A program made the position numbers and the translations under genes. Of a stretch of 64,000 bases of DNA, positions 6,223 to 42,933 are shown one piece after another (position 1 is the stretch's first letter; each line of letters begins with the position of its first letter). The notes beneath the pieces are model-generated. The model saw nothing but the letters and a program-made list of their open reading frames with translations. It ran no database searches and was not told the origin of the DNA. The stretch lies in the sequence record SRR31156797_201, one strand, 5' to 3'.

Positions 6223-6226
6223 CTTT

Positions 6227-23100: not shown

Positions 23101-24204
23101 TTAAAGTGGTGTAATATTGTAAATTCCTCTGATAATGACATTGGATAAGTTTTGTGCATCAAGAATTTCGATATATTCATTTGATTCGACTCCAATTGTG
23201 ATAAACTTTCTCTTTAAAAAGATATTGTTTTCAATTTCTTTATCAATTATAAAAATATAAGAATCCGTTCCTGATTTGGAGACAGCTGATATTGGTAATG
23301 CCAAAGCATCTTTTTCATTTGTTTTAATTTCAGCATTAACATATGATCCATAAATAAGATTTCCTTTCGTTACATTAGCTAAGCAAATAATAGATTTCGA
23401 CTTTGAATCAATTGTATTTCCAATACTTTTAATAATTGCTATACTTTCATTTTTGCCTGGACTTATAATAGTAACACTTTGACCTTTTTTTATTGAGTTA
23501 ATATCTTTCTCAAAAAGATTAAGTTTTATCTGTAGCTTATCTGGATTAACAATTTTAGCAAGTAACTCTTGATTTTCAGTATATTTTCCAATTGTAATCT
23601 CATTATTTTCAATATATCCACTTATAGGAGCAACAACGGAAAAATAGGTATATAATTTTCCATTTTTAATCCGGTTTGTATTGAATCCTAAAAGCTCGAA
23701 TTTTAATTGCAAAGATTCGAGATGTATTTTTGATGTAAGATACTTGCTCTGAGAAATTTCAAACTCCTTTTTGGCTCCGATGTTTTCATTCATTAATTCT
23801 TTTTGCCTTAAGTAGTTTGATTTTAGCACATTGGTTTCTATTACTTTATTGGCAAAATCAGTTTGAAGATTTATAAAATCGTTGGATACCAACTTGCAAA
23901 GCACTTGTCCTTTTTCTACAAAATCGCCTGACGAAAAATGGATTGATTTTATTATTCCTTTGATTGGAGTACTAATTTCAGCATATCCATTTGGTTTAGC
24001 TGAAACATAGCCGGTACAACTTATCCTGTCTGTGAAGCAATGGATTTCAGGTTTACCTATTTCCATTTTGTCATTATTGAATTGTTCTTTTGTGATTTGA
24101 ATCAATTCTTCGGATGGAATAATTTCAATGGATTCCTTTGAATGTTGATTTTTACATCCAATTGCTAAAACCATTAGTATTGTAATTACAATTATTTGTC
24201 TCAT
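23101..24204 (-). CDS. RND efflux periplasmic adaptor (CzcB/CusB-like lipoprotein)
   Basis: Lipobox LAIGC; ISTPIKGII..GDFVEKGQ, VVAPISG and LPISAV. Confidence 0.9.
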   Translation of the reverse strand: MRQIIVITILMVLAIGCKNQHSKESIEIIPSEELIQITKEQFNNDKMEIGKPEIHCFTDRISCTGYVSAKPNGYAEISTPIKGIIKSIHFSSGDFVEKGQVLCKLVSNDFINLQTDFANKVIETNVLKSNYLRQKELMNENIGAKKEFEISQSKYLTSKIHLESLQLKFELLGFNTNRIKNGKLYTYFSVVAPISGYIENNEITIGKYTENQELLAKIVNPDKLQIKLNLFEKDINSIKKGQSVTIISPGKNESIAIIKSIGNTIDSKSKSIICLANVTKGNLIYGSYVNAEIKTNEKDALALPISAVSKSGTDSYIFIIDKEIENNIFLKRKFITIGVESNEYIEILDAQNLSNVIIRGIYNITPL

Positions 24205-27200: not shown

Positions 27201-28553
27201 GTTCATCATTTTGGAAGCGCCACTTATGGTTAGTTTATCTAATAAAGATTGGCGATTTTCTTTACTGGTGCTGTTAAATTCTTGTGATTTTACTGTAATT
27301 CTGATGGCAATGTATTCTACGATTATAACTGCTCCGTCTATAATAATACCAAAATCTAAGGCTCCTAAACTCATTAGGTTAGCATCTATCCCGAAAACAT
27401 ACATCATGGATAATGTAAATAGAAGTGAAAGAGGAATCATGGATGCAATTACAAGTGCTGACCTTAGATTACCAAGTAGTACAATAACTACAATCATAAC
27501 TATTAAGCAGCCTAAAACTAAATTTTCAATTACGGTGTTGGTTGTTTTTCCAATCAATTCGCTTCTCTCAAGAATTGGATTTACAAAGACACCTTCAGGT
27601 AGGTTTTTTTGTATTTCTTCGACTCTTTTTTTAACTTCATTTATTACCAATTTCGAATTGGCATTTTTCAACATCATAATTTGTCCAAGTACTTTCTCGC
27701 CTTCTCCATTTGCCGTTATGGCTCCATATCTGTTGGCAAAACCAAAATGAACATTGGCTATGTCTTTTACCAAAATTGGTATTCCATTGTTGTTCTGAAC
27801 TACAATGTTTTCGATATCAGTTATCGATTTTATTTGCCCATCGCCTCTTATAAAATAACTTTGATTCGTTTTTTCAATGTATGCAGCTCCGGTTATACTA
27901 TTGTTATTTTGGAGTGCCTCAAACAATTCCATCAGATTTACATTCATCGATTTTAAATGAAGAGGATCTACCTGCACTTCATATTGTTTTAAAAAACCAC
28001 CCCAGCTATTAACTTCCACTACTCCGGGTATTCCAGACAATTGTCTTCGTACAATCCAATCTTGAATTGTGCGAAGTTCCATCGCAGTATATTTATCCTT
28101 AAATTCAGGTTTTACATCTAGAATGTATTGATATATTTCACCAAGACCAGTTGTAATTGGTCCCATTTCAGGAGTTCCGAAACCATTGGGAATATTAGCA
28201 GTAGCATTTTTAATTTTCTCGGCAATTAACTGTCGCGGCAGATAGGTTCCCATATTATCATTAAAGACTAGAGTAACTACTGATAAGCCAAATTTGGATA
28301 CAGAGCGAATTTCTTCAATGCCAGGTAAATTAGACATTTCTAATTCTACAGGTGCAGTTATAAATTGTTCAATTTCCTGAGTAGATAAATTTCCTGAGGT
28401 TGTGATAACCTGAACTTGATTATTGGTTATATCGGGGACCGCACCAATGGGAATTTTTAGAATAGAGTAGGAACCAAAAAGAACGATAGAAAATGTAAAT
28501 AGGATAACTATTAGTTTGTTTTTGGTACTAAAGGCAATTATTTTCTCTAACAT
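24207..28553 (-). CDS. czcA: CusA/CzcA heavy-metal RND permease with fused C-terminal TolC-like domain
   Basis: AVPDITNNQVQV, NLMSLGALDFGIIIDG, RLRPVILTA and EVQRPLATVVIGG; extra about 380-aa OEP-like C-terminus. Confidence 0.92.
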   Translation of the reverse strand: MLEKIIAFSTKNKLIVILFTFSIVLFGSYSILKIPIGAVPDITNNQVQVITTSGNLSTQEIEQFITAPVELEMSNLPGIEEIRSVSKFGLSVVTLVFNDNMGTYLPRQLIAEKIKNATANIPNGFGTPEMGPITTGLGEIYQYILDVKPEFKDKYTAMELRTIQDWIVRRQLSGIPGVVEVNSWGGFLKQYEVQVDPLHLKSMNVNLMELFEALQNNNSITGAAYIEKTNQSYFIRGDGQIKSITDIENIVVQNNNGIPILVKDIANVHFGFANRYGAITANGEGEKVLGQIMMLKNANSKLVINEVKKRVEEIQKNLPEGVFVNPILERSELIGKTTNTVIENLVLGCLIVMIVVIVLLGNLRSALVIASMIPLSLLFTLSMMYVFGIDANLMSLGALDFGIIIDGAVIIVEYIAIRITVKSQEFNSTSKENRQSLLDKLTISGASKMMNSAIFGQIIILIVFIPILSLQGVEGKMFRPMALSFSFAIIGAMILGFTWLPVASSLFLKPEPINKRNISSQIMEWLYKSYTPIMKWSCGHKRIVLGLSLIALLFTGVIFSRMGGEFVPTLDEGDFVIQPVLKTGTSLSKTVEMCTEMEQILIDSFPEIDQIVCRIGAAEVPTDPMSMEEIDMIIKLHPRSEWTSAKNKEQLADLFKNALSIIPGIEYEFTQPIEMRFNELITGVRADIAIKIFGDDLKYLSAKAAEIKKTIEGVPGAADIIIEKTEGLPQMNIAYKRKQIARYGLNIQTLNNYLAMAFGGAVSGSVFEGEKKFDLVVRLNQANRVDINNIRNLPIPLDKSHLIPMSELADITYTEGPAKISRENTHRMVAISVNVRNKDLQSVVEDIQTRIDENIQLKPGNYIHYGGQFENLQNASKRLLFAVPVALLLIFIFLHFAFKSFKDAIMIFTAVPLSSIGGVLFLWIRGMPFSVSAGIGFIALFGIAVLNGIVLIEHLKDLQKGGMRNMRELILTGTKDRLRPVILTAAAAATGFLPMAISTGAGAEVQRPLATVVIGGLISSSMLTMIALPLLFEIFYNVIGIRFRPLRFIRSKPVITILVIAMSCIGIKAQTTKEYDLNETIELALKNNKNLQIYELQLKQEETLKASFFNPDKTKLFYEYDQNNIAENGHPLKIFGLEQNFSFPTVYSAQNKISKQKISSAELNFHHRKQLIVRDISLAYNQILYLTNKMEVLKKIDSLFSNYTKSAKLKYKNGEISLLDLLNSKAKQEKTALKVKDLSHKLVIAYTKLNSITQIQAPYKIQDQKLEKIQLEEFKPKSSFTMQEARLDIQHKELLSKLQINKTLPDISLSYYRGSNSYSNHKTYEGFQIGLSIPLFYKAHKSKIKATQISLIMSKLSEANTLIQLNSKQRELKSELVKYQETIQYFENTGIDLSNEIIRNAEKTFQLGEVDFFQFAISMENALELRTKHLDDLFKYNQVAIELNYLSK

Positions 28554-29116
28554 GACGAAGTTTTTTTGAATTTCAATTCTTGATTGAATTTTAGCGTCAA
28601 CTTAAAACTCATTGCAATAAATATTCATCGCACCTATACTTCGCCACTACCTTAAAATATTTATACTAATAAATTGACTAATTGATTGATTAGAATTTTA
28701 AACTATTTTCAAGTTATGAAAATAATACACCTATGACAAAAAAGATAGCTATTGATTTGGATATGATAAATAATATTAATGTTTTTTGATGTGTAATGTA
28801 ATGGCAAGTAAAACAAAAGATATTAACTTATTAGGCTATTGATACAATAGGGAGTTTATGCACAGACGCTTATTTGCATAAATAGTTGTGCTTGTGACAA
28901 AAGAATTATTTTTCTGAGATGTGTCACTTATTTGTATGAATGTTGGAATAATTTTTTGTTTTATAAACAATTTGCGTTTTATAGCTGTAAAAGGAAACAA
29001 AAATTACTTCTTTCCGTAAATCTGATTTGTAGTTTTCACTGAAAAGTGGGAAGCCCAAAGACTTTACTATTTAAAATTGATGAATGCTTTCACCGGAGAG
29101 CCAATTAAATTTACCT

Positions 29117-29479
29117 ATGAAAAAAATACTTGTTGTTGACGATAAACCATCTATGAGCCAATTAATGGTTCGATTTCTACAAAACTCATTCGATGTAACC
29201 ACCAAGGATGATGGACTTAAAGCTATCTCATGGTTGCAATCTGGTAACATTCCAGATATCATTTTAACAGACCTACAGATGCCAAATATGGATGGTATCG
29301 AGTTAATCAAGCGAATTAAGGAAAGTGGATATTTTAATGATATTCCAATTATTGTTTTAAGTAGTCAGGAGAGTAGTAATGTGCGTGTTGAATGTCTTAA
29401 ACTAGGTGCGGAAGATTACATAATGAAACCATTTAATCCTGAAGAATTGATGATAAGAATTGAACGTTTGATTAAATAG
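29117..29479 (+). CDS. Single-domain response regulator (REC)
   Basis: MKKILVVDD, IILTD, LSS and KPF all intact; likely ATG at 29117. Confidence 0.92.
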   Translation: MKKILVVDDKPSMSQLMVRFLQNSFDVTTKDDGLKAISWLQSGNIPDIILTDLQMPNMDGIELIKRIKESGYFNDIPIIVLSSQESSNVRVECLKLGAEDYIMKPFNPEELMIRIERLIK

Positions 29480-29486
29480 AGATGTT

Positions 29487-30674
29487 ATGGAATCAGTAAA
29501 CAGACAAATGAAGTTGATGTATATTGGCTCTGATGATGTGGTTCTTTCCAAACTAAAAGGATTGAATGGAAGAGTTAATCTTGTGCACCATGCAAATCCA
29601 TTGGAAGCTTCTTCCTGGATTGAAAATAATGGGTTGGTTGATGGTGTTGTTTGTGAGTTGGAATTACCAGGACTGAATGGTTTGGACTATAATGATGTTT
29701 TTGTAAACAAGTTCGATGAGCAACAAAAGATACCATATATATTGTTGGTTGATGAAAAACAACCTGAAATCATTAAAAAAGCCATCCAGCAAAAAATTAG
29801 TGACGTATATACTAAGCCAGTTGATGCTGAAACCATAACTAATAGAGTAAACTTTCTCAAGGTTTTAACGGTGCATATGTCTTTTAATCAGGCAGAAGAA
29901 AACCAAAATGTTAAGGTATACAAAACTCCTTTCTTTAAGCGTACTTTCGATATCGTTTTTTCCAGTTTGGCACTTCTTGGATTATCTCCATTATTGTTGG
30001 CTTTTGTTATTGCTATTCGATTAGAATCCAAAGGAAAAGTGTATTACATATCTAAAAGAGTGGGTACAGGCTATCGAATATTTAATTTCTTAAAGTTAAG
30101 ATCTATGTATCCTGATGCAGACAAGAGATTAAAAGAATTGGAACATCTGAATCAATATCAAAGTGAGGAGAATGTGGAAGAAAATAACGTTGAGGAAGAA
30201 GGTGTTGAGGAAAATCAAGGTATAATATTGTTTGGTGATGAGGAAGAAGTAGCTGAAACAACACATATTAAGAGACAAAAAAACAAACAAGATAAGGCAT
30301 TTGTAAAATTTGAAAATGATCCTCGAATTACTAAGGTTGGTCATATCATACGAAAGTTAAGTATTGATGAATTGCCTCAATTGATAAATGTAATTCGTGG
30401 AGATATGTCAATTGTAGGTAATCGCCCATTACCATTGTATGAAGCGGAAATGTTGACTACCGATGAATGGACTGATCGTTTTAATGGTCCGGCAGGTATT
30501 ACCGGTTTGTGGCAAGTGGAAGCCAGAGGAAAATCTTCAAAAATGTCGCCTGAGGAGCGAAAAAGTTTGGATAATAAATATGTTGAAATTGCGAATAGTA
30601 GTTATTCATTTTGGAAAGATATTTGGATTATTCTACGAACGATACCCGCTGTTTTTCAAAAAGAAAACGTTTAA
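29487..30674 (+). CDS. Receiver-like domain fused to a priming phosphoglycosyltransferase (bacterial sugar transferase)
   Basis: N-terminal REC-like fold (ELPGLNG, KPVD); KRTFDI-TM, KLRSM, DPRITKVG, IDELPQL, GDMSIVGNRP and GITGLWQV. Confidence 0.9.
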   Translation: MESVNRQMKLMYIGSDDVVLSKLKGLNGRVNLVHHANPLEASSWIENNGLVDGVVCELELPGLNGLDYNDVFVNKFDEQQKIPYILLVDEKQPEIIKKAIQQKISDVYTKPVDAETITNRVNFLKVLTVHMSFNQAEENQNVKVYKTPFFKRTFDIVFSSLALLGLSPLLLAFVIAIRLESKGKVYYISKRVGTGYRIFNFLKLRSMYPDADKRLKELEHLNQYQSEENVEENNVEEEGVEENQGIILFGDEEEVAETTHIKRQKNKQDKAFVKFENDPRITKVGHIIRKLSIDELPQLINVIRGDMSIVGNRPLPLYEAEMLTTDEWTDRFNGPAGITGLWQVEARGKSSKMSPEERKSLDNKYVEIANSSYSFWKDIWIILRTIPAVFQKENV

Positions 30675-30684
30675 ATAAGCTTTT

Positions 30685-31422
30685 ATGAAATTAAGATTAT
30701 TGCTGTCCTTGTATGTGTTTTTTGCTGGAACTGGATATTCCACAGCCCAAAATATAGAGGATGTTGTGAATAAAACTGTTCAGGGAAATCAAGTTTCAGA
30801 TTTACTGCTACCGCTTAGCCAAATACAAGATTTGGCAATTCAAAATTCTCCATTGTTGAAATTATACGATTCCGAGATTGTAATTGGTCAATTAAAAATA
30901 AAGGCTGAGAAACGAGATTGGATGTCAAATTTGGGTTTTGAAGCCGGAGCAAAATATGGATTGTATGATAATTTGGTAATTACAGAAGATTTAGGCACAG
31001 GCGAGTCTAATACCTCAACTACGGAACAAACACGATATAGTGTTGGTGTATTTTTAAAAATTCCTCTTAACAATATTGCGGATAGGTCTAATGTAAGACA
31101 GGCAAAAGCTGAGTTGGAGAAAATTCGGTATCAAAAAGAAAATAGTGAACAAGAACTTCGTAAGTTAATTATTATACAATATAATAATGTTTTGAAATCA
31201 AACATGAGTTTGGAAATTAGGAATAAATCTTACGAAATGTTCAAATTACAGTTAATCAGATCTGAGAAAGATTTTGTGAATGGAAAAATTAATATCTCGG
31301 AATATTCAAAAGTACATGATATGACAGTAAGGGCAGAACTGGAATTTAACAATGTAAAAATTGAATTACGTACGGCCATTCAGGTGTTGAATGAAATTGT
31401 AGGAGCTCAGGTTACACTCTAA
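30685..31422 (+). CDS. Short TolC/OEP-like secreted protein
   Basis: Signal peptide STA-Q; LAIQNSPLL, two beta-strands ending LKIPL, then long helices as in one OEP repeat. Confidence 0.65.
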   Translation: MKLRLLLSLYVFFAGTGYSTAQNIEDVVNKTVQGNQVSDLLLPLSQIQDLAIQNSPLLKLYDSEIVIGQLKIKAEKRDWMSNLGFEAGAKYGLYDNLVITEDLGTGESNTSTTEQTRYSVGVFLKIPLNNIADRSNVRQAKAELEKIRYQKENSEQELRKLIIIQYNNVLKSNMSLEIRNKSYEMFKLQLIRSEKDFVNGKINISEYSKVHDMTVRAELEFNNVKIELRTAIQVLNEIVGAQVTL

Positions 31423-31433
31423 ATCTAATTATT

Positions 31434-33644
31434 TTGAATATTATATTCTTTATACGACTACTTCAGAAGCATATGCTAATATTGGTTATTACACCAATAA
31501 TGATGGCTGGGTTGGTATTTTTTCTTACCCAAAATCAACCAAGCAAGTTTGTTTCGCAAACAAAAATATATACTGGAATTGCAACAGGTTCATCAATTGT
31601 TTCACTTGAGGAATCAAAATTTGATTTGTTTGGAACAAGAACTGCTTTTGATAATCTAATTAACCTGATAAAATCGAAAACAACGATTGAAGAGGTTGGC
31701 TTGAAGCTGTTTACTCAGCATATGTTGTTGGATGAAGCCAAACAAGATGTTATTTTAAGAAATCATTATAACGAGCTGATGGCAATTGTTCCTGATGAGG
31801 TGAAGAATTTAGTTGTCAAGAATAATTTTGAAAAAACATATCACAATTTTTTGCAGTACAAGCAAAAGGATCATTCAAATTTTGTGAATGAATTAATTAA
31901 CCTAAATCACCGTCATTATAGTTCTAAAAAGATATTATCCAAAATTAAAGTAAGCCGTGTTCAATCGAGTGACATGATTGAAATAAAGTATGAATCTGAT
32001 GATCCAGGAATTTGTTCAGGAACCTTAAAGTTACTAAACGAGGTTTTTGTAAAAGTGTATTCCGATATTAAGGTAAATCAATCTGATGCTGTCGTTAGAT
32101 ATTTTCAAAAGGAAATTGAAGGAGCAAGAGCTTCTTTAAATGGAGCTGAGGAGGAGTTGGTAGAGTTTAACCGTAATCATAACATCATAAATTATTACGA
32201 ACAAACAAAACATATTGCATCTGAAAAAGAGCATTTTGATTTGATGTACACTCAAATTTTAATGGATCATGTTGCAGCCGAATCGGTATTGAAGGTCTTA
32301 GAAAGTAAGATGTCTGAAAGCGAAAAACGACGGATTAATAGCGATGAGATGATTGCTTTGAGGGATAGCTTGTCAGATGTAAATTATCAAATTTCGATGA
32401 AGATTAGTCGTTCAGAAATTTTTGGAGAGTTAAATGATGACGAAACTGAAAGACTGAATAGGTTAAAAACTAAAGCTGATGAGTTAACTCAATATCTTCG
32501 GAAAAATGTTGAAAAACAATTTGATTTAGATAATAGCATTGAGGGCTTAACGGGTAGTTCAATTCTTGATCAATGGTTGCAAAAAATGATAGAATTTGAG
32601 TCGTCACAAGCACAATTGGAAGTGGGAAAACAAATTACAAAAGAATTTGAAGAATTATTTGAAACCTATGCCCCTTTAGGTGCGAAGATGAAGCGTTTGG
32701 AACGAAAAATTGATGTAGCAGAGAGGAAATATTTATCGATGCTGAATAGTTTAAATACAGCAAAATTAAAACAACAGAACATTGAACTAAATTCGAATTT
32801 AAAGATTGTTGCAGAACCATTTTTTCCTATCGAGGCAGAACCTAGCAAGAGAAAGTTTCTATTAATTATAGCATTTATGGTTGGAGGAATAATTCCAGCT
32901 TTCATAATTTTAGCTTTGGAATTTTTGGATAGCAGTATCAAAACAGTTCATCGAGCCGAAGATAAAACAGGTTTGAAGGTAGCAGCTATGTTCCCTAAGA
33001 ATTTAAATAAAAATGATAAGTTGGATCATGAGTTTATAAATGGAAGAAGTCTGGATGTAATAGCCAGAAAACTGACATTGCTGAATCATAAAGAAGAAAA
33101 TGGTGGAGCTCACAAGATTCTTATATATAGTAACCTGAAGGGGGAGGGCAAGACTTATCTATCAAGTTTACTTTTTGAGAAATTTGAACAATTTGGTTTA
33201 AAAACATTGTTTGTAACTCCTCATGATATTGAAGCTCCTATCGGTTGTACTTGTATTAATTATCAGATTAAACCTAATTTTAATCGTTTATCTAGTATTC
33301 AGGATATTTTGAATGATACTGTAAATATCAATGATTTTGATTATGCTTTTGTTGAATTACCAGCAATTATCTCAAATGCTTATCCATTGAAATGGTTTAA
33401 AGAAGCTGATAATTCATTATTGGTACTTCGTGCAAATCGAGCTTGGACTGAAGCTGATGGCAATTCTTTAAGGGATATAGAATTGGTGAGTGAAGGAAAA
33501 CAATCACAAATAATACTTAATGGTGTGGAACTAACCGAAATGGAAAGTGTGTTAGGAGATTTGCCTAAAAAACGTTCATGGTTTAGGAGAGGAATTAAGA
33601 ATATTTTGAGATTACGCTTTTTCACCAATGCAAATATTCTATAA
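31434..33644 (+). CDS. Polysaccharide co-polymerase (Wzc/GumC-like) with degenerate kinase domain
   Basis: Two TMs flanking a periplasmic coiled coil; P-x3-P-S-K-R before TM2; Walker A-like SNLKGEGKT; TTG start. Confidence 0.85.
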   Translation: MNIIFFIRLLQKHMLILVITPIMMAGLVFFLTQNQPSKFVSQTKIYTGIATGSSIVSLEESKFDLFGTRTAFDNLINLIKSKTTIEEVGLKLFTQHMLLDEAKQDVILRNHYNELMAIVPDEVKNLVVKNNFEKTYHNFLQYKQKDHSNFVNELINLNHRHYSSKKILSKIKVSRVQSSDMIEIKYESDDPGICSGTLKLLNEVFVKVYSDIKVNQSDAVVRYFQKEIEGARASLNGAEEELVEFNRNHNIINYYEQTKHIASEKEHFDLMYTQILMDHVAAESVLKVLESKMSESEKRRINSDEMIALRDSLSDVNYQISMKISRSEIFGELNDDETERLNRLKTKADELTQYLRKNVEKQFDLDNSIEGLTGSSILDQWLQKMIEFESSQAQLEVGKQITKEFEELFETYAPLGAKMKRLERKIDVAERKYLSMLNSLNTAKLKQQNIELNSNLKIVAEPFFPIEAEPSKRKFLLIIAFMVGGIIPAFIILALEFLDSSIKTVHRAEDKTGLKVAAMFPKNLNKNDKLDHEFINGRSLDVIARKLTLLNHKEENGGAHKILIYSNLKGEGKTYLSSLLFEKFEQFGLKTLFVTPHDIEAPIGCTCINYQIKPNFNRLSSIQDILNDTVNINDFDYAFVELPAIISNAYPLKWFKEADNSLLVLRANRAWTEADGNSLRDIELVSEGKQSQIILNGVELTEMESVLGDLPKKRSWFRRGIKNILRLRFFTNANIL

Positions 33645-34985
33645 ATGTTAAATATCATTCGAAAAATAGTAAGAGAGAAAAATGTTTTGTCGCTATCAAC
33701 AAGTATACTGACAGCAGCTTTGGGCTTACTTGGATTCTTACTTCTCACAAGAGGTTTGAGTCAGAGTATGTTTGGAGATTGGGTGTTGTATACTTCATTG
33801 GCAACATTTGTTGATTTACTTCGGTTTGGATTAACAAGTACCGCCTTGGTTCGATTTGCCTCAGGTGGAAATGATGATCAAAAAAAGGCATATTTGGGCG
33901 CAAGCTTTAAAATCGGACTTTTTGTGGTTGGAGCGATAGTTATTATTCTTTGGACCATATTCTTTATCACTGCCAGTTTTGATATACAAATGAATAATGG
34001 CTACTATTTATTTTTGAAATGGTACCCAATTCTAGCTGTTTTAAATTTATCGTGGAACAATTCTGTTTCTTATTTTCAAGCGGGTCAGAATTTTAAATCC
34101 ATACTGTTTATTCGGTTAATTAACGTAGGGAGTTTTGTTCTTTTTCTGATTATAAACAATTTGTTTTTCCGTTTTGGAATCATTGAGATATTATATGCGC
34201 ACTTGGCTTGTAATTTATTACCTAGCATTCTGGTTTTTGTAAAAAAATGGGATGGATTACTTTACATTCGAAGAGCTACAAAAGAAACGGTTTCCGAGAT
34301 GCTGAATTTTGGTAAATTCTCCATGGGAACATTGGTAGGTTCGAGTTTGTTGCGCAGTGCCGATACCTTTATTATTGGTTTAAGCCCAGTTTTAGGATCC
34401 GTAGGTATTGCGCAATATGCCATTCCGTTAAAATTGACCGACCTTCTTGGAATACCTCTGCGTAGTTTTACGGTTACAGCATTTCCTAAAATGTCTAAAC
34501 TAAGCTTAGCTGGTAAAATTGATGAATTCAAAGATGTGTTTTATTCGTATAGTGGTGCAGTAACTTTCTTGTTTGTTCCAGTTGCTATCGGAGGATTTAT
34601 TTTTGCCGAACCATTGGTTTGGTTGCTTGGTGGCGATCAGTACAAAGATTCGTTACCATTGCTTGCTAATATCTTTAGAATCTTTTCTGTTTACTCCATA
34701 TTATTACCAATAGATCGATTTACTGGTGTTGCTTTAGACAGTATAAACCGACCAAAAATGAACTTTTACAAAGTGATTGTAATGACTTCAGCAAATATTA
34801 TAGGAGATCTTGTAGCTGTCTTCGTATTTCAATCTTTGCAGGCAGTCGCATTGGTTACGGTTGTATTTACTTTAATAGGTATTGTAATTGGATATACTTA
34901 TTTAAATAGGGAAATTAGGGTTAATATTTTGCAAGTAGCAAACGGAGGATTGATCTTTTTTAAGAATTTGAGAAGACATTTATAA
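33645..34985 (+). CDS. wzx: Wzx-type polysaccharide flippase (MOP family)
   Basis: About 12 TMs; LTRGLSQSMFG, FGLTSTALVRF, DTFIIG and GIAQY; EPS context. Confidence 0.82.
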   Translation: MLNIIRKIVREKNVLSLSTSILTAALGLLGFLLLTRGLSQSMFGDWVLYTSLATFVDLLRFGLTSTALVRFASGGNDDQKKAYLGASFKIGLFVVGAIVIILWTIFFITASFDIQMNNGYYLFLKWYPILAVLNLSWNNSVSYFQAGQNFKSILFIRLINVGSFVLFLIINNLFFRFGIIEILYAHLACNLLPSILVFVKKWDGLLYIRRATKETVSEMLNFGKFSMGTLVGSSLLRSADTFIIGLSPVLGSVGIAQYAIPLKLTDLLGIPLRSFTVTAFPKMSKLSLAGKIDEFKDVFYSYSGAVTFLFVPVAIGGFIFAEPLVWLLGGDQYKDSLPLLANIFRIFSVYSILLPIDRFTGVALDSINRPKMNFYKVIVMTSANIIGDLVAVFVFQSLQAVALVTVVFTLIGIVIGYTYLNREIRVNILQVANGGLIFFKNLRRHL

Positions 34986-34989
34986 TTCA

Positions 34990-36477
34990 ATGTATATGAG
35001 CAATGATTTTACCATTTCACGAGGAAGCGATATTCTAAGAAAACCAGTTTGGTTTATTGGCTTGCTTGCAATGATGCTGGTATTGTCTTTTATGATTGCT
35101 AAAGGTGGAATGGTTGCTGGTATTGGAATTATTCTTGTTCCTGGTATTTTAACAGCTGTATCGTTCATTTTCAAAATCCCTCGAGTTGGTTTAATTTTTA
35201 TTTACCTATTAAACTATGTAGTACTTGGTTTGGTGAGATATGTGAAGGGAATTCCTTTAGGGCTGAGTATTGATGGAATTCTGATAATGATATATCTGGC
35301 TTTATTCTTTAAATCTTTTTTTGAAAAAGTACCCTGGAAAAATGCAAAAAATGATTTGGTTGTATTGGCTGCTGTTTGGTTTGCTTATGCTATTTTTCAA
35401 TTGGTAAATCCAGAAGCTGTTAGTCGTGTGGCGTGGTTTTATGCTATGCGTGGAGTTGCATTTTATATGTTACTAATTATTCCAATTTTGTTTATTGTTT
35501 TTAATAAGCAAAAAGATTTGGATCTTTTCTTCAAAATGTGGGCTTGTTTGGCACTTTTAGGTTCATTTAAAGGAATAATGCAAAAGCATTTTGGCGTTGA
35601 CCCATGGGAACAGGCATGGCTTGATGGCGGTGGAGAACTTACACATATACTTTTCGGAAAATTAAGAGTTTTTTCATTTTTTTCAGATGCAGGACAGTTT
35701 GGTGCATCGCAAGGTCAGGCAGGTGTTGTTTTTGGAATACTGGCCTTAAATCGTGAGAAATGGGATAAGGTTAAAATATTTTATGGCATTGTGGCTTTTT
35801 TAGGTCTTTATGGAATGATGATTTCAGGAACTCGTGGGGCTATTGCAGTGCCAATTATGGGTTTTGCCTTGTATACTTTTCTAAGGAAAAATATACGTGT
35901 TATGATACTTGGAGCTCTTATGGGATTAATGGTTCTGGTATTTTTCAAATATACTACAATAGGTTCTAGTAATTATACAATCAATAGAATGCGCACTGCA
36001 TTCGATCCCAACGATGCTTCTCTACAAGTTAGGCTAGAGAACCAAAGAAGATTAAAAACCTATATGGCGAGTAGACCATTTGGAGGAGGTATTGGATCGG
36101 CAGGGAACTGGGGGCAACGATTTACTCCAAATACTTTTTTAGCAAATACACCAACAGATAGTTGGTATGTAATGATTTGGGCAGAACAAGGTATTGTGGG
36201 TTTAACTCTACACTTGTTTATTCTCTTTTATGTATTAGGTAAAGGAAGTTATTTGATCATGTTCAAATTAAGGGATAAGAGGTTAAAAATACAGATGATG
36301 GCATTAGCAGGAGGAATGTTTGGAATTATGGTTGCTTCATACGGGAATGGTGTCCTGGGGCAAATGCCCACTGGATTAATAATGTACTCAAGTATGGCTT
36401 TTTTGTTTTTAGCACCTAAACTCGATCAGGATATTGCAGATAAAAAAACTTTGGAAGAGAAAGATAAAACGACTTAA
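34990..36477 (+). CDS. wzy: Wzy polymerase / O-antigen-ligase family protein
   Basis: Multi-TM; SGTRGA, R..PFGGGIG and DSWYVMIWAEQGIVG. Confidence 0.8.
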   Translation: MYMSNDFTISRGSDILRKPVWFIGLLAMMLVLSFMIAKGGMVAGIGIILVPGILTAVSFIFKIPRVGLIFIYLLNYVVLGLVRYVKGIPLGLSIDGILIMIYLALFFKSFFEKVPWKNAKNDLVVLAAVWFAYAIFQLVNPEAVSRVAWFYAMRGVAFYMLLIIPILFIVFNKQKDLDLFFKMWACLALLGSFKGIMQKHFGVDPWEQAWLDGGGELTHILFGKLRVFSFFSDAGQFGASQGQAGVVFGILALNREKWDKVKIFYGIVAFLGLYGMMISGTRGAIAVPIMGFALYTFLRKNIRVMILGALMGLMVLVFFKYTTIGSSNYTINRMRTAFDPNDASLQVRLENQRRLKTYMASRPFGGGIGSAGNWGQRFTPNTFLANTPTDSWYVMIWAEQGIVGLTLHLFILFYVLGKGSYLIMFKLRDKRLKIQMMALAGGMFGIMVASYGNGVLGQMPTGLIMYSSMAFLFLAPKLDQDIADKKTLEEKDKTT

Positions 36478-36488
36478 AATAATCTACT

Positions 36489-37415
36489 ATGCAAGATGAT
36501 AATAGAGAACAACCTTTAGTTTCCATTATTACGGTTAATTATAATCAGGCAGGAGTTACTTGTGAGTTTTTGGAGAGTATTCAAAAAATCACGTATCCAA
36601 ATTATGAGGTAATCGTCGTTGATAATGCTTCACCTACCGAAGACCCATCATCAATAAAAGAGAATTATCCTTTTATAGAATTTATTAAATCGGAAGTGAA
36701 TCTGGGTTTTGCAGGTGGAAACAATTTGGGAGTAAGAGTAGCAAAAGGTGAATATCTTCTTTTCATTAATAATGATACGGAAGTGGAAGCTGATTTTTTA
36801 CAACCTATGATTGAAAAATTTCAGGAGGATGATAATATTGGGATGATGAGTCCAAAAATTCGATTTCATCACACTCCAGATACCATACAATATGCAGGCT
36901 ATACTCCAATGAATCCCTATACAATGCGTCAACATTTAATAGGGTACAGAAAGGTGGACAAAGGTCAGTTTGATGAACCAAAATTTACGTATAGTATCCA
37001 CGGTGCCGCTATGATGGTACCACGAAAAGTAATACAAGAGGTGGGTATGATGACAGAGGTATATTTTCTTTACTACGAAGAGCATGATTGGTGTGCTAGA
37101 ATTAAAAAAGTGGGTTATAAGGTTTTTTATCAACCTAAATCTCTGGTTTTTCACAAAGAATCGATATCAACAGGAAAGGAAAGTCCACTTAAAACTTATT
37201 ACATATCTCGTAATAGAATTGTATACACCAGAAGAAATTCAAAAGGTTTACTATTTATATTGAATTTATTATTCCTCTTGGGTATAACATTGCCAAAGAA
37301 TACTTTAGTTTTTCTTGTTAAGCTGAGATTTGATCTGCTAAAGGCATTTTATAAAGCAATGTTTTGGAATTTATTTCATTTTAAAGGGATTCATCACAAC
37401 CCAAAGCTCTCTTAA
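36489..37415 (+). CDS. Glycosyltransferase family 2
   Basis: SIITVNYN, VVDNAS, NLGFAGGNN, INND and FLYYEEHDW. Confidence 0.9.
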   Translation: MQDDNREQPLVSIITVNYNQAGVTCEFLESIQKITYPNYEVIVVDNASPTEDPSSIKENYPFIEFIKSEVNLGFAGGNNLGVRVAKGEYLLFINNDTEVEADFLQPMIEKFQEDDNIGMMSPKIRFHHTPDTIQYAGYTPMNPYTMRQHLIGYRKVDKGQFDEPKFTYSIHGAAMMVPRKVIQEVGMMTEVYFLYYEEHDWCARIKKVGYKVFYQPKSLVFHKESISTGKESPLKTYYISRNRIVYTRRNSKGLLFILNLLFLLGITLPKNTLVFLVKLRFDLLKAFYKAMFWNLFHFKGIHHNPKLS

Positions 37416-37459
37416 TGCGTATCAATCTACTTTAGAGATTATATCACTAAATACTACTT

Positions 37460-38659
37460 ATGGAATCAATTTTGACTATTTTTCACGTATTAGAATATAT
37501 TTTATTTATCTACTTAGGTATAGCCGGGGTTTACATTCTGATTTTTGCTTTAGCCTCAGTTTTCAAATATCATCCTAAAAGAAAGAAGGATTGTAAGCAG
37601 AGGAAAACTGCTGTTCTTATTCCTGGATATAAGGAGGATGCCGTAATTGTTGATGTTGCTAAGCAAGCTTTATTGCAATCTTATAAACAAGAAAATTACG
37701 ATGTTGTTGTAATCGCAGATTCTTTTCAATCTGAAACTATTGATAAACTTCGTGAACTCCCGATTAAATTAATTGAAGTAAGTTTTCCAAAAAGTACAAA
37801 ATCGAAAGCTTTGAATAAAGCTATGGAAGTACTAGGTGATGATTACGAAATTGCCTGCATTCTCGATGCAGACAATATTATGGAAATGGATGTTTTAGAG
37901 AGAATTAACGAATCGTTCGAGAATGGATATAAAGTAGTGCAAGGTCACAGGGCAGCAAAAAATGTGAATACTTCCTTTGCTATTTTGGATGCTGTAAGTG
38001 AGGAGTTAAATAATAATATCTTTCGTAAAGGACATCGGATTCTCGGATTCTCATCAGCATTAATTGGTTCGGGAATGGCTTTCGAGTACTCTTTCTTTAA
38101 AAACATAATGAAAGAGGTAAATGCTGTAGGAGGATTTGATAAGGAATTGGAATTGCGATTGCTTAAAGACAAGCAAAAAATTGAATATTTACCGGATGCT
38201 ATTATTTACGATGAGAAAATTCAAAAATCAGATGCATTTGCCAATCAAAGAAAAAGATGGTTATCCGCCCAGTTTGTATACTTCCAACGTTATGCAATGC
38301 CAGGTTTGATACATTTGGTTTTTAAAGGGAATGTGGATTTTTTCGATAAGGTTTATCAAATGATCTCTCCACCACGAATTCTACTATTGGGGATGGTTGG
38401 ATTTTTTACAATTGCCTACTGGATGATTCATTTGTTAATTCCCAATTCATTGGAAATGGCATTGACCCAGAATCATTGGAGCATTGTAATGGCAATAGTT
38501 GTAATGGCATTTGTCATTGGCATACCACGAAAGTTTTACAATAAAGCAACCTTACAGGCTATACTGTCTTTACCAAAAGCATTTTTTATCATGTTTGCTT
38601 CTCTATTTAAGCTAAAAGGAGCAAATAAGAAATTTATACATACTCAACACGGACAATAG
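37460..38659 (+). CDS. Membrane-bound GT2 (synthase-like, QxxRW)
   Basis: N-terminal TM; LIPGYKE, IAD, KSKALN, LDAD, QRKRW; C-terminal TMs. Confidence 0.87.
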   Translation: MESILTIFHVLEYILFIYLGIAGVYILIFALASVFKYHPKRKKDCKQRKTAVLIPGYKEDAVIVDVAKQALLQSYKQENYDVVVIADSFQSETIDKLRELPIKLIEVSFPKSTKSKALNKAMEVLGDDYEIACILDADNIMEMDVLERINESFENGYKVVQGHRAAKNVNTSFAILDAVSEELNNNIFRKGHRILGFSSALIGSGMAFEYSFFKNIMKEVNAVGGFDKELELRLLKDKQKIEYLPDAIIYDEKIQKSDAFANQRKRWLSAQFVYFQRYAMPGLIHLVFKGNVDFFDKVYQMISPPRILLLGMVGFFTIAYWMIHLLIPNSLEMALTQNHWSIVMAIVVMAFVIGIPRKFYNKATLQAILSLPKAFFIMFASLFKLKGANKKFIHTQHGQ

Positions 38660-38698
38660 TCTTTATTGACTATAAATAACTACTAACTTAAATTACTT

Positions 38699-39850
38699 AT
38701 GAAGATCGGAATAGAAGGACAACGACTTTTTAGAACCAAGAAACATGGTATGGATATGGTTGCTTTGGAGTTGATAAAAAACCTTCAGGAAATTGATAAG
38801 GAAAACGAATATGTAATCTTTGTTAAGCCTGACGAAGACAAATGCTTAAGCGATACTGAGAATTTTAAAATTGTTGAACTGGGCGGTGGTCCTTATCCTT
38901 TATGGGAACAATGGGCGTTACCAAGAGCAGCAAAGAAATATGGATGCGATGTTTTGCATTGTACCAGCAATACAGCCCCTGTATTTTCAAAAACACCATT
39001 GGTTCTTATTTTACATGATATCATATACCTTGAAAGTATAAGTATTTTTAAGAAAGCAGGAACCTGGTATCAAAAACTGGGTAATATGTATCGTCGTTGG
39101 GTTGTTCCGCCGGTTGTAAAAAGAAGTAAAAAAGTAGTAACGGTTTCCAATTACGAGAAGGAACGAATTGCTAAGTTTTTTGATATGGATAGCAGCCGAT
39201 TGTCGGCGATTTACAATGGAGTAGGACCTCATTTTCAGAAAATATCCGATCAGAATTATTTAAAAGAAATCAAAAATAAATACAATTTGCCGGATCACTT
39301 TATGTTCTTTTTAGGTAATACAGATCCTAAGAAAAACACAATTGGTGTTTTAAAAGCTTTCGCTGATTTTAATGCTCAATCGGAAAAACAATACAAGTTG
39401 GTAATGTTGGATTACGACGAAGGAGCTTTACAAAGTTTACTTGCTGAAATAGGTCATCCTGAAATTCGTGAACACATTCAATTAACCGGATATGTTCCAA
39501 ACATAGAAATGCCAGCAATTATTAATCAATGTGCAGTCTTTTTGTATCCATCGTTGCGCGAGAGTTTTGGTATTCCAATTTTGGAAGGAATGGCTTGCGG
39601 TGTTCCGGTAATTACATCAAACACATCATCGATGCCTGAGATTGCAGAAGATGCAGCTCATATTGTTGATCCTCATAAACCAGAACAAATTACAGAGGGA
39701 ATTGTTAAGATTTTAGCAGACGAGAACTATCGAAATTTATTAGTGGAGAAGGGATTGGAGAGGTCGAAATATTTTTCGTGGAAACGTATGGCAGAAGAAA
39801 ACCTGAAATTATACGCAGAACTTCAAACACCTAAAAATTCACAATCATGA
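38699..39850 (+). CDS. Glycosyltransferase family 4 (GT-B)
   Basis: LHD, KKN, YPSLRESFGIPILEGMACGVPV and FSW. Confidence 0.9.
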   Translation: MKIGIEGQRLFRTKKHGMDMVALELIKNLQEIDKENEYVIFVKPDEDKCLSDTENFKIVELGGGPYPLWEQWALPRAAKKYGCDVLHCTSNTAPVFSKTPLVLILHDIIYLESISIFKKAGTWYQKLGNMYRRWVVPPVVKRSKKVVTVSNYEKERIAKFFDMDSSRLSAIYNGVGPHFQKISDQNYLKEIKNKYNLPDHFMFFLGNTDPKKNTIGVLKAFADFNAQSEKQYKLVMLDYDEGALQSLLAEIGHPEIREHIQLTGYVPNIEMPAIINQCAVFLYPSLRESFGIPILEGMACGVPVITSNTSSMPEIAEDAAHIVDPHKPEQITEGIVKILADENYRNLLVEKGLERSKYFSWKRMAEENLKLYAELQTPKNSQS

Positions 39851-41061
39851 TAGAAGGTAAAAATATTGTAGTGGTTGGAATTCAACCATGGGATATCGAA
39901 ATAGGAAGTAATTGTAAAAATATAGCTACAGAATTCGCAAAAAAGAACAGAGTATTGTATGTGAATTCTCCACTTGATAGAGTTTCAAGGTTCAGGGAGC
40001 GAAAAACGGATAAAATACAGAAGCGAATAAGAGTAAAAAAGGGAGTAGATTCAAGTTTAGTTGAGATAAGTGAGAACTTATGGAACCTTTATCCTAAAAG
40101 TATGGTTGAATCCATCAATTCGATTAAATCAGCTACTGTTTTTGATTATTTGAACAAGCGAAATGCAAGAAAATTCGCCAATGATATTCAAAAAGCTTGT
40201 AAGGAATTGGGCTTCGATAATTTCATTCTATTTAATGATAGCTCGATGTTTTTGGGTCAGCATTTAAAGGAATACTTACAACCTTCAGCCTATGTATATT
40301 ACATGCGCGATTATCTGATAAAAAATCCATATTGGAAGAAACATGGAGTTAGATTGGAGCCAAAATTGATAGCAAAAGCTGATGTAGTGGTGTGCAATTC
40401 GACTTTGTATGCTGAATATGGAGCTAAATATAACAAACATTCCTACATGGTTGGTCAGGGCTGCGATACTACTCTTTTTAACGATTTGGAGCGCGATATT
40501 CAGGTAGCTCAAGATTTAGCTGCTATTCCAAAACCTATTATTGGATATGTTGGATTTCTTACCTCACGTAGGTTGGATATAGAAATCATATCTCACCTGG
40601 CAAAATCGCGTCCTAATTGGAGTATTGTATTGGTAGGTCCCGAGGATGAGAAATTTGCAGGATCGGAATTGCATCAGTTAATCAATGTGCATTTTTTAGG
40701 TAGCAGAGATTCATCGGAACTACCAAACTACATTAAAGGATTTGATGTAACCATGAACCCACAGCTGATTAATGATGCCACAATTGGAAATTATCCGCGA
40801 AAAATAGACGAATATCTGGCGATGGGAAAACCTGTGCTTGCTTCGGCTACTAAAGCTATGGAATACTTTAAGGATTATACTTATTTAGGTAAAACTCCTG
40901 AAGATTATGTGGAGTTAGCTGAAAAATCTCTATCGGAGAATAGTAAAGAACTGGAACTTGCACGAAGAGAATACGGAACGGGACATTCGTGGGAGAACAA
41001 TGTGAAAGAGATTTATAAGTTTCTTGAAGTAGTTGTAAAAGAAAAACAATTGACTTTATGA
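39847..41061 (+). CDS. GT-B glycosyltransferase (TuaH-like)
   Basis: PIIGYVG, LVGP, NVHFLG and PRKIDEYLAMGKPV. Confidence 0.85.
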   Translation: MIEGKNIVVVGIQPWDIEIGSNCKNIATEFAKKNRVLYVNSPLDRVSRFRERKTDKIQKRIRVKKGVDSSLVEISENLWNLYPKSMVESINSIKSATVFDYLNKRNARKFANDIQKACKELGFDNFILFNDSSMFLGQHLKEYLQPSAYVYYMRDYLIKNPYWKKHGVRLEPKLIAKADVVVCNSTLYAEYGAKYNKHSYMVGQGCDTTLFNDLERDIQVAQDLAAIPKPIIGYVGFLTSRRLDIEIISHLAKSRPNWSIVLVGPEDEKFAGSELHQLINVHFLGSRDSSELPNYIKGFDVTMNPQLINDATIGNYPRKIDEYLAMGKPVLASATKAMEYFKDYTYLGKTPEDYVELAEKSLSENSKELELARREYGTGHSWENNVKEIYKFLEVVVKEKQLTL

Positions 41062-41705
41062 GCGTATTAAATAAGATAAAAGGCAACCCTAAATTAAAGG
41101 CTTTTGTACTTTGGAGTATTGCACCAAAGCGAAATCCAAAACCTCGTTTATGGGTTCGATGGTTTCTAAATCCGTTTATTCATAAGAAAGGAAAAGGTGC
41201 TACAATTAGGCGAAGAAGTAGAATTGATGTATTTCCCTGGAATCGATTTGAAATAGGAAAACTAACAACAATCGAAGATTTCTGTACTGTGAATAATGGC
41301 TCAGGTCATGTTTTACTTGGCGATAGAGTTAGAATAGGGATTGGGAGCGTTGTAATTGGACCTGTAGAGATGGGAAGTGGCTCTGGATTAGGACAACATG
41401 TTTTCATTTCAGGATTTAATCATGGATATGAGGATGGGAGCAAAAATTCCAGTGTTCAGGAACTGGATATCAAACCAACTAAAATTGGTGAAGACTCGCA
41501 TATAGGTGCAAATTCGGTTGTGTTAGCGGGAGTTAAGATTGGTAAGCGTTGTCAGATTGGAGCAGGAAGTGTCGTTACCAAAGATATTCCTGATTTTTCG
41601 GTAGCTGTTGGGAATCCTGCAAAAGTGATCAAACAATTTAATCCTGATTCTAATAAATGGGAAAAAATTACTTCTCAGAAAGAAACTAAACAATCAACCT
41701 TATAG
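41058..41705 (+). CDS. Hexapeptide-repeat (LbH) O-acyltransferase
   Basis: IGEDSHIGANSVVLAGVKIGKRCQIGAGSVVTKDIP...GNPAK. Confidence 0.9.
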   Translation: MSVLNKIKGNPKLKAFVLWSIAPKRNPKPRLWVRWFLNPFIHKKGKGATIRRRSRIDVFPWNRFEIGKLTTIEDFCTVNNGSGHVLLGDRVRIGIGSVVIGPVEMGSGSGLGQHVFISGFNHGYEDGSKNSSVQELDIKPTKIGEDSHIGANSVVLAGVKIGKRCQIGAGSVVTKDIPDFSVAVGNPAKVIKQFNPDSNKWEKITSQKETKQSTL

Positions 41706-41745
41706 AAGGTAAAACAGAACTCAAAATCATAAAACTACTTGACTT

Positions 41746-42933
41746 ATGAAATATATAGAAATAACATTTTGGATTGCTCTTTTTATTATTTTTTATTCGT
41801 ATTTGGGATATGGTATTTTACTTTTCCTTATCATTAAATTAAGGCGACTGTTTGGTTTGTCGAAAGCTTATGAAGGCAATGATGATTATCAGCCTGAAGT
41901 TACACTGTTCGTAGCTGCTTTTAACGAAAAGGATTATGTAGATGAAAAGGTGAAAAATTCTCGCAGTTTAAATTATCCAACCAACAAAGTAAAGCAGGTT
42001 TGGGTTACCGATGGTTCGGATGATGGAACTCCTGAAATGTTAAGGAATTATGATGGTGTTGAAGTTTATCATGAAGATGCACGGGGTGGAAAGATTGGAG
42101 CTATGAATCGTGGAATGCAGTTTGTAAAAACGCCAATTGTTATTTTTTCGGATGGAAATACAACATTAGGAGAAGATTCCATACAGGAAATAGTCAATCT
42201 ATTTAAGAATCCAAAAGTTGGCTGTGTTTCGGGAGAAAAAAGAATTTACCAAAAAGATGCCGACGCTGCAGCCGGTGCCGGTGAAGGTTTGTATTGGAAA
42301 TATGAATCGACTTTAAAGAAATGGGATGCTGAATGGTATTCGGTTGTTGGTGCAGCTGGTGAGTTGTTTGCCATTAGAACCGAATTGTGGCAGGAAGTTG
42401 AGAAAGACACTTTACTTGATGACTTTATCATTTCTCTACGTGTTGCTATGTCTGGATATACCATTCAATACAATCCTAATGCTTATGCCATTGAAACAGC
42501 TTCGGCAAATGTAAAGGAAGAGTTGAAACGTAAGGTTAGAATTTCGGCTGGAGGAATTCAATCAGTTGTAAGATTAAGTCCTTTATTAAATCTCTTTAAA
42601 TTTGGACGATTATCCTTTCAGTACATTTCGCATCGTGTTTTACGATGGACTTTAACACCTCTGTTATTGCTATTTATTATTCCTTTGAATTTTGTTTTGG
42701 CGTATAATTCAGGAATGAATCCAACGAATATTTATACTCTGTTATTCTGCGGGCAAATGGTTTTTTATGCAGCAGCATTAATTGGTTGGTTTTTGGAGAA
42801 TCGTAGAATTAAGGTAAAGGCTCTGTTTGTTCCCTATTATTTCTTTATTATGAATTTGTCAGTTTATCTTGGCTTTCGAAGATATATTAAGGGCAATCAA
42901 TCTGTTAAGTGGGAGAGAGCTAAAAGAGGTTAG
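41746..42933 (+). CDS. Membrane-bound GT2 (PgaC/IcaA-like)
   Basis: N-terminal TM; VAAFNE, DGSDDGT, GKIGAMN, SDGN, LLDD and RKVRI; C-terminal TMs. Confidence 0.87.
   Translation: MKYIEITFWIALFIIFYSYLGYGILLFLIIKLRRLFGLSKAYEGNDDYQPEVTLFVAAFNEKDYVDEKVKNSRSLNYPTNKVKQVWVTDGSDDGTPEMLRNYDGVEVYHEDARGGKIGAMNRGMQFVKTPIVIFSDGNTTLGEDSIQEIVNLFKNPKVGCVSGEKRIYQKDADAAAGAGEGLYWKYESTLKKWDAEWYSVVGAAGELFAIRTELWQEVEKDTLLDDFIISLRVAMSGYTIQYNPNAYAIETASANVKEELKRKVRISAGGIQSVVRLSPLLNLFKFGRLSFQYISHRVLRWTLTPLLLLFIIPLNFVLAYNSGMNPTNIYTLLFCGQMVFYAAALIGWFLENRRIKVKALFVPYYFFIMNLSVYLGFRRYIKGNQSVKWERAKRG

Follow-up and report, generated by a model that had tools for sequence, protein, structure and literature searches.

A glycan-priming transferase of Bacteroidota carries a Glu-type pseudo-receiver domain and is encoded next to a canonical receiver

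Within a 64,000-nucleotide stretch of sequence record SRR31156797_201 (one strand; subsequently designated the window), the gene at 29487..30674 (+) encodes a predicted glycan-priming transferase with a receiver-like domain at its N-terminus. The residues found in this domain provide good support for the view that it represents a pseudo-receiver, which should be incapable of phosphorylation, as Glu57 occupies the position of the phospho-acceptor. The gene located immediately upstream encodes a canonical single-domain receiver, and conservation of this arrangement among Bacteroidota strongly suggests that the transferase is regulated by the neighboring receiver.

Results

The N-terminal domain of the transferase has a receiver fold with Glu at the acceptor site

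The open reading frame (ORF) at 29487..30674 was verified and codes for a two-domain protein of 395 amino acids. Pfam assigns residues 34–121 to the Response_reg family (PF00072) with a borderline score (31 bits as compared to a cut-off of 30.2), and residues 151–391 to Bac_transf (PF02397; 180 bits, cut-off 27). The receiver-like domain as delimited here comprises residues 1–137 (29487..29897 (+)). The closest named relatives, annotated as ‘sugar transferase’, are found in Marinifilum spp. and share 63–72% identity across the N-terminal 150 residues.

In the original prediction, which relied on the letters of the window, the motif DGVVCE57LELPGLNG was taken to carry Glu57 at the phospho-acceptor position. 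A phmmer search against the sequences of the PDB bore this out: the motif aligned with DGVLLDMKIPGMDG of Spo0F and DFVVTDWNMPGMQG of CheY3, and Glu57, encoded by the codon GAG at 29655..29657 (+), came to lie on the acceptor Asp. The same register was obtained by alignment with the receiver encoded upstream (IPDIILTDLQMPNMDG). A model of the transferase was calculated with AlphaFold2 from 46 sequences and reached a mean predicted local distance difference test score (pLDDT) of 77. The N-terminal domain adopts a (beta-alpha)5 fold in this model and is covered by blocks with pLDDT values of 87–96, which span residues 11–120. Strand 1 is formed by residues 8–13, strand 3 by 53–57, strand 4 by 84–88 and strand 5 by 106–109. 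Strand 3 terminates at Glu57, as is the case for the acceptor of receivers, and Asp52 immediately precedes this strand. Helix 5 (residues 114–137) is long and is followed, after a poorly modeled linker, by a long membrane helix (residues 149–181). When the N-terminal half of the model was submitted to Foldseek, many receiver domains were retrieved with template modeling (TM) scores of 0.75–0.85 and root mean square deviations of 2.0–2.6 Å.

Of the five residues that make up the catalytic quintet of receivers, Lys alone survives in this domain. The canonical positions of the acidic pair are occupied by Gly14-Ser15, and D16-D17 are located at the start of helix 1. The acidic pair had been described as displaced; the present data agree that it is missing from its site, but indicate that it was lost rather than shifted, because position 16 is Asp in just 48 of 86 family members and position 17 is not conserved at all. 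Val88 is found at the Thr/Ser site, a substitution that had gone unnoticed before. The KP motif is indeed kept in the protein of the window (K110-P111), yet this does not hold for the family as a whole, as detailed below. Thus, the domain is a receiver by profile and fold but lacks the residues for phosphotransfer, which is the definition of a pseudo-receiver. As Glu replaces the acceptor, the Mg-binding acidic pair is absent and Val occupies the Thr/Ser site, the domain is very probably not phosphorylatable.

Loss of the phosphorylation site is a trait of the whole family

To place these substitutions in context, residues 1–150 were searched against 1.84 billion representative proteins, which yielded 185 matches at E ≤ 0.001. 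The best 150 of these were listed, and the relatives among them share a signature consisting of [LIV]-Y-[IV]-G in place of the acidic pair, Glu (sometimes Asp) as acceptor, L-P-G-x-N-G, P-F-I-L and D-D-x-Y-x-x-P. This signature is carried by the matches possessing a transferase domain and by many N-terminal fragments, and it separates them from ordinary receivers lower in the list. A family set of 97 distinct N-terminal domains was then assembled from close matches, representatives and all ORFs of the loci described in the next section. Inclusion required a score of at least 40 bits with the family profile, exceeding the score with a profile of canonical receivers by 10 bits. Divergent members from Bacteroides, Prevotella and Chitinophagaceae scored below 40 and were excluded, since their acceptor site could not be aligned reliably; in several of them Pfam detects no receiver.

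Among the 95 domains aligned at the acceptor column, Glu is present in 74 and Asp in 14, while the remaining seven carry Gln (3), Ser (2), Asn (1) or Ala (1). An acidic residue is therefore retained at the dead site in 88/95 members. The 15 distinct close sequences, including that of the window, show the same picture with Glu in 14 cases and Asp in one. Glu57 is thus not a chance substitution, which answers the question for homologues that had been raised together with the prediction. Position 14 is Gly in 86/86 domains. Ser or Thr occupies the Thr/Ser position in 34 of 97 rows, the commonest residues being Ser (27), Ala (15) and Val (13), and position 110 is Lys in 35/93. When sorted by acceptor class, Lys110 accompanies Glu in 32/70, Asp in 2/14 and other residues in 0/7 cases, which is to be read as a trend only, as kinship was ignored. 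None of the 97 N-terminal domains combines Asp at the acceptor site with Ser/Thr and Lys. The idea that the enzyme itself is not phosphorylated hence gains support from the family as well as from Glu57, Val88 and the missing acidic pair in the window protein, and judging from these sequences, the entire family is one of pseudo-receivers rather than the trait being a one-off. Two other residues, namely Asp106 in strand 5 (92/93) and Arg120 in helix 5 (88/92), are better conserved than Glu57 itself. Loops near the former active site also remain conserved (L60, P61, G62, N64 and G65 as well as P83).

That the domain is a genuine receiver, which is phosphorylated on a different Asp (D52, D16 or D17), appears extremely unlikely. 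Asp52 is conserved in 78/95 members and D16-D17 are close to the former site; however, the metal-binding pair is Gly-Ser, position 17 is unconserved, and Asp52 corresponds to the common Asp found at the start of strand 3 (IPDIILTD in the upstream receiver), on the opposite side from the active site. Asp52 was rejected as substitute acceptor on the basis of alignment register and position in the model. An Asp at the acceptor site, e.g. Asp52, had been named beforehand as one observation that would speak against the prediction. As Asp52 is the common Asp of the motif ‘PDxxxxD’ ahead of strand 3, this objection does not apply.

The transferase gene is paired with a gene for a single-domain receiver

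The receiver gene at 29117..29479 (+) ends 7 nt upstream of the ATG of the transferase gene and encodes a protein of 120 amino acids, presumed to be the phosphorylatable partner. It matches Response_reg with 108 bits, comprises no other domain and possesses the full quintet D8, D9, D52, S82 and K104, in agreement with its previous description as a fully canonical receiver. The ATG at 29117 was chosen over the one at 29084, because the orthologous proteins begin with MKKKIL.

To assess conservation of this arrangement, one genome per species was scanned using the full-length alignment. At least 601 relatives were matched, and the analysis proceeded with the 80 best loci. The top 26 of these all belong to Bacteroidota and include Bacteroides, Prevotella, Flavobacterium, Lacinutrix, Sediminibacterium, Pedobacter, Mucilaginibacter, Rufibacter, Dawidia, Saprospiraceae and Chitinophagaceae. 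Directly upstream and on the same strand, 24 of these 26 loci contain an ORF coding for a receiver and nothing else (121–155 amino acids), with gaps between −29 and +114 nt. Loci L016 and L018 deviate from this pattern and encode bare transferases of 268–269 residues. A single-domain receiver was found upstream in none of the remaining 54 of the best 80 loci, which mostly encode large transferases of other phyla. A separate sample comprised 151 genomes of one order, which were searched with the N-terminal domain only. Here, 27 genomes matched and 12 loci were fetched: the receiver gene is directly upstream in ten, an ORF for a partial receiver-like protein is upstream in one, and in the last the receiver is encoded 380 nt downstream. 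No Marinifilum genome was among the matches of either genome search, and the best match in the order-level sample is 39% identical.

The catalytic quintet is retained in 28 of 36 upstream receivers, lost in six and of uncertain status in two owing to doubtful ORF calls. Receivers that kept the catalytic set are 31–49% identical to the one of the window and share the motif K-P-F-N-P-x-E-L. The receivers that lost the quintet belong to loci L019, L021, L022, L023, L025 and L026 (Pedobacter, Chitinophagaceae) and carry, for instance, Ser or Glu at the acceptor site or Gly in the acidic pair. As the pair is kept even where both halves are catalytically dead, the conserved feature appears to be the partnership of the two proteins.

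The N-terminal domain is present in 22 of the 24 paired loci. At the other two (L002:5482-6768 and L017:2350-3609), the orthologous receiver directly precedes a bare transferase of 263 and 248 residues, respectively, which has no pseudo-receiver. The receiver may therefore contact the catalytic domain instead of, or in addition to, the pseudo-receiver. If so, it could act on the catalytic domain directly, and the pseudo-receiver could serve a different purpose, for instance in self-association or in placing the enzyme at the membrane. This scenario would resemble the model for Myxococcus xanthus, in which the receiver EpsW touches the catalytic domain of its target EpsZ, as outlined in a section of PMC12802240. 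The receiver of L002 is moreover the one closest to that of the window in our receiver alignment (A5; 49% identity). However, the predominance of the N-terminal domain in the paired loci argues against this scenario, and so does the near-invariance of Asp106 and Arg120, which lie in strand 5 and helix 5 on a face known for its role as dimer interface. We consider this scenario unlikely.

Complex prediction and points that speak against the proposed interaction

The original prediction had also called for a prediction of the complex. Modeling of the upstream receiver together with the full enzyme gave scores of 0.58, 0.59 and 0.52 in three runs (median 0.58), while the best of three controls scored 0.01. 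At least 78% of the contacts agreed between runs and the pLDDT of the partner was at least 83. The alignments of the family did not enter the calculation, and the tool returned the score without an interface. Its mark is reached by 51/78 solved complexes and by 2/108 mismatched pairs, but at scores of up to 0.60 by 5/78 solved complexes and by all four passing mismatches (of 180). The outcome clearly exceeds the controls, but falls in this band of low reliability and was graded as weak support; we count it as a small increment on a prior that is already fairly high from synteny.

Several observations weigh against a phosphorylation-controlled interaction of the receiver with the pseudo-receiver. 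First, the score of 0.58 lies in a band in which, by the tool's own account, most passes are wrong unless the interaction was likely beforehand, and, as receiver-receiver dimers abound among solved structures, the pass may reflect memory or likeness. Second, the loss of the quintet in six of 36 upstream receivers, with two more uncertain, means that control by phosphorylation is not universal. Third, the pairs at L002 and L017 demonstrate that the pseudo-receiver is not required for pairing. Fourth, Lys110, the expected partner of a phosphomimetic Glu, is present in just 35/93 domains, or 32/70 when members with Glu are considered. Finally, the counts at the defining columns of the family are partly circular, because the profile used for selection was derived from family members.

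The catalytic domain resembles PglC

The C-terminal part of the transferase, encoded by 29937..30659 (+), is a small monotopic phosphoglycosyl transferase of the PglC type, which is predicted to transfer a sugar-1-phosphate to undecaprenyl phosphate. NCBIfam assigns it to the polyprenyl glycosylphosphotransferases, with scores below all equivalog cut-offs. In Foldseek, the C-terminal half of the model retrieved PglC (8e37_A; E = 3e-13) with a TM score of 0.81 on the target, whereas WbaP (8t53_A) reached merely 0.37, pointing to the fold of PglC without the transmembrane bundle and the domain of unknown function (DUF) of the large enzymes. The catalytic part has the membrane helix comprising residues 149–181, which includes S167-P168, and possesses the dyad D294-E295. 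We take the Asp-Glu dyad to be catalytic and the Ser-Pro pair to cause the break in the re-entrant membrane helix. D294, E295 and P168 are invariant in an alignment of 46 sequences (A4), and S167 is conserved to at least 90% in an alignment of 18 rows. Together with further invariant columns, the dyad shows that the catalytic core of the enzyme is intact.

The catalytic domain also contains an insert that varies with lineage (alignment A4), located in the protein of the window at residues 208–275 (30108-30311). In 16 of the 46 family members, the insert exhibits a Cys-x2-Cys...Cys...Cys motif, making it a candidate zinc ribbon. An acidic stretch of low model confidence takes its place in Marinifilum, Bacteroides and Prevotella; in the transferase studied here, this stretch comprises approximately residues 222–253. 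In Sphingobacteriia and Chitinophagia the insert is shorter, with just 28–34 residues.

Operon context and candidate inputs

Downstream of the transferase gene and on the same strand, Pfam identifies genes for an OEP protein, a Wzc-like protein, a flippase, a Wzy-type polymerase, five glycosyltransferases and an acyltransferase. These genes mark a polysaccharide operon of the Wzx/Wzy type, and we accordingly assign the transferase to its priming step. The first gene (30685..31422 (+)) encodes a half-length TolC-like outer-membrane protein of 245 amino acids (OEP, 83 bits), and the same gene comes next in six of ten annotated related loci. It is followed by the gene for a Wzc-like co-polymerase of 736 residues with a weak match to GNVR (31434..33644 (+)). 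Counterparts of 720–792 residues follow the OEP gene in the same six loci; three of them match CbiA or AAA_31 below or near the Pfam cut-off and the other three match no family. The pair of OEP and Wzc-like genes (30685-33644) occupies the place expected for a Wza exporter, as it does in L004, L007, L010, L012, L015 and L020. The remainder of the operon (33645..42933 (+)) codes for flippase, polymerase, GT2, GT2, GT4, GT4, a hexapeptide acyltransferase and GT2.

This context bears on the idea that Glu57 turns the pseudo-receiver into a constitutive phosphomimetic ‘on’ module, while the upstream receiver acts elsewhere, e.g. as phosphate sink or on the Wzc-like protein. In four loci (L001, L013, L021, L024) receiver and transferase genes remain adjacent even though the genes for OEP and Wzc-like proteins are absent, which is difficult to reconcile with a target of this kind. 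In addition, the Lys and Thr/Ser residues with which a phosphomimetic Glu is expected to cooperate are mostly missing in the family, and according to a part of a 2025 review (PMC12632262) there are pseudo-receivers for which the notion of a phosphomimic was refuted. The same source reports that replacement of the acceptor Asp by Glu partially activates many regulators, which would fit the retention of an acidic residue in nearly all family members. On balance, we regard a permanently active module as quite improbable.

As judged by Pfam, three genes further downstream are candidates for the signal input, by adjacency only. A kinase with the architecture REC-HisKA-HATPase is encoded at 43053-44180 (−), and an H-NOX gene (44415-44957) diverges from it. 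The latter is overlapped by 4 nt by the gene for a hybrid kinase with PAS-GAF-HisKA-HATPase-REC architecture (44954-47923). Next to the polysaccharide operon, this cluster may form a phosphorelay that responds to nitric oxide. That it feeds the switch proposed below, linking sensing of nitric oxide to polymer synthesis, is a doubtful conjecture. An H-NOX protein was rejected as general input, as PF07700 was found in one of five other genomes bearing the fusion, and there on a different contig. No Hpt domain was found by Pfam within the window. A regulatory RNA in the upstream leader of 560 nt was likewise dismissed, the only hit being a chance match to a snoRNA (E = 0.45; 20 bits as compared to a gathering score of 101).

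The pseudo-receiver might alternatively work on the signaling side, as a decoy for a kinase or as a binder of a small ligand. Some pseudo-receivers bind small ligands such as cyclic di-GMP. Loops belonging to the kinase-docking face (L60, P61, G62, N64, G65 and P83) are still conserved, and pseudo-receivers competing for kinase binding are listed as a hypothesis in the review (PMC12632262, in part). However, no kinase is conserved beside the pair, kinase genes being present at just two of the ten annotated loci (L012, L020), and we judge such a function very unlikely.

Two further gene arrangements in the window deserve mention. At 24207-28553 (−), a single ORF encodes a protein of 1448 residues, in which a complete AcrB-type RND pump (901 bits) is fused to a C-terminal OEP domain of the outer-membrane-factor kind; it is adjoined by a gene for a HlyD-type adaptor (23101-24204). 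The region 5086-8374 codes for a FIST-domain protein and, 4 nt further on, for a PAS-PAS hybrid histidine kinase that carries a receiver at its C-terminus.

Discussion

In the current work, we describe a transferase whose N-terminal domain preserves the fold of a receiver but not its chemistry, and which is encoded next to a receiver that has retained both. Three lines of evidence lead us to propose, in line with the original prediction, that the former is regulated by the latter: conservation of the gene pair, which is present in 24/26 and 10/12 loci and absent from the 54 control loci; the precedent of EpsW and EpsZ; and the weak pass in complex prediction. The upstream receiver would be the phosphorylatable half of the pair. 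Upon phosphorylation by a kinase, it would dock on the transferase, most likely by forming a heterodimer with the pseudo-receiver via the helix4-strand5-helix5 face, to which the near-invariant residues Asp106 and Arg120 belong. Receivers of the OmpR/PhoB type form active dimers through this face, employing a strand-5 Asp and a helix-5 Arg. The effect of docking on priming could be relayed by the long helix 5, which leads toward the catalytic domain embedded in the membrane. Its conserved Glu (or Asp) at the acceptor site may fix the pseudo-receiver in an active-like state competent for pairing; with the dead half held in one state, the phosphorylation state of the partner alone would matter. 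Whereas domain architecture, residue identities, their conservation in the family and the gene pairing are direct results of the analysis, we infer that the two proteins bind, which face they use, in which direction priming changes and what Glu57 contributes. The proposal in its general form, i.e. gating of priming by a phosphorylated receiver bound to the pseudo-receiver or to the enzyme, appears to us slightly more probable than not to be correct. The more specific and wider claim, that a heterodimer of a live and a dead receiver acts across Bacteroidota as a phosphorylation-dependent on/off switch for the initiation of exopolysaccharide synthesis, with Glu locking the dead half, is more tentative, and we would rate its chances as somewhat below even.

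The closest precedent is provided by M. xanthus, where phosphorylated EpsW binds and activates the priming transferase EpsZ, according to the portion of the report considered here (Schwabe et al., mBio 2025, PMC12802240). In both cases, a phosphorylatable single-domain regulator is encoded with a priming transferase. However, EpsZ is a large monotopic enzyme composed of a transmembrane bundle, a DUF and a catalytic domain, while the enzyme of the window is a small PglC-like protein equipped with a dead receiver, stems from another phylum and is known from sequence and prediction. Targets of the EpsW type are large transferases with a DUF lacking the dimerizing beta-hairpin, a description that does not apply to the present enzyme. 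EpsW was proposed to promote dimerization of EpsZ, and the same portion of that paper points out that small transferases are monomeric, so that the mechanism may differ there (PMC12802240). With Campylobacter PglC (PDB 8e37, 8g1n), the enzyme shares the catalytic fold, the Asp-Glu dyad and the Ser-Pro kink, but PglC has neither an N-terminal regulatory domain nor the insert of approximately 65 residues in the catalytic domain.

Receivers fused to small monotopic transferases have been remarked on previously (O'Toole, Imperiali and Allen, PNAS 2021, as cited in PMC12802240) and belong to the same class of architecture. The citing passage in PMC12802240 refers to them as receiver domains and says nothing of lost catalytic residues or of a partner that is always encoded upstream. 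Likewise, our literature search, which did not extend to the text and supplements of O'Toole et al. 2021, retrieved no description of a transferase with a Glu-type pseudo-receiver or of an obligatory receiver encoded upstream. A paper on Prevotella intermedia (PMC9262359), as far as its accessible part goes, has no bearing on the pair.

The proposed mode of action is in line with ideas developed for pseudo-receivers elsewhere. In the sections of the 2025 review that we draw on (PMC12632262), Glu is named as the residue that most often replaces the acceptor Asp, heterodimers of receivers with pseudo-receivers are proposed as a mechanism, and the activation of pseudo-receivers is called a mystery. 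Plant pseudo-response regulators (PRRs) and fungal Rim15p, as portrayed there, share with our domain the receiver fold, the exchange of the acceptor Asp for Glu and the absence of phosphotransfer chemistry, but their outputs are DNA-binding or kinase domains rather than a membrane enzyme for glycan priming with a dedicated live receiver as neighbor. The review also covers the BldM-WhiI heterodimer of Streptomyces and a hypothesis for CmrR/CmrT, in which an atypical or pseudo-receiver is proposed to pair with another receiver. These proteins are transcription factors and regulate no enzyme, whereas the output in the present case is an enzyme (PMC12632262, in part).

Bacteria have to divide undecaprenyl phosphate between glycan pathways that compete for it, and how they do so has yet to be settled. 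Post-translational control of priming by a response regulator was first shown in 2025, in one myxobacterium. If our proposal is true, the module described here would operate by a mechanism distinct from EpsW-driven dimerization. It would bring a second enzyme architecture under control at the priming step and carry this principle across an entire phylum, including Bacteroides and Prevotella of the gut, Flavobacterium and the Sphingobacteriia of soil. It would also provide bacterial pseudo-receivers with a concrete function and those of the Glu type with their first defined job, and the alternation of Glu and Asp at the acceptor site offers a simple handle for mutational analysis. In the marine member of the Bacteroidota from which the window derives, the live receiver probably switches synthesis of a surface polymer on and off at the protein level.

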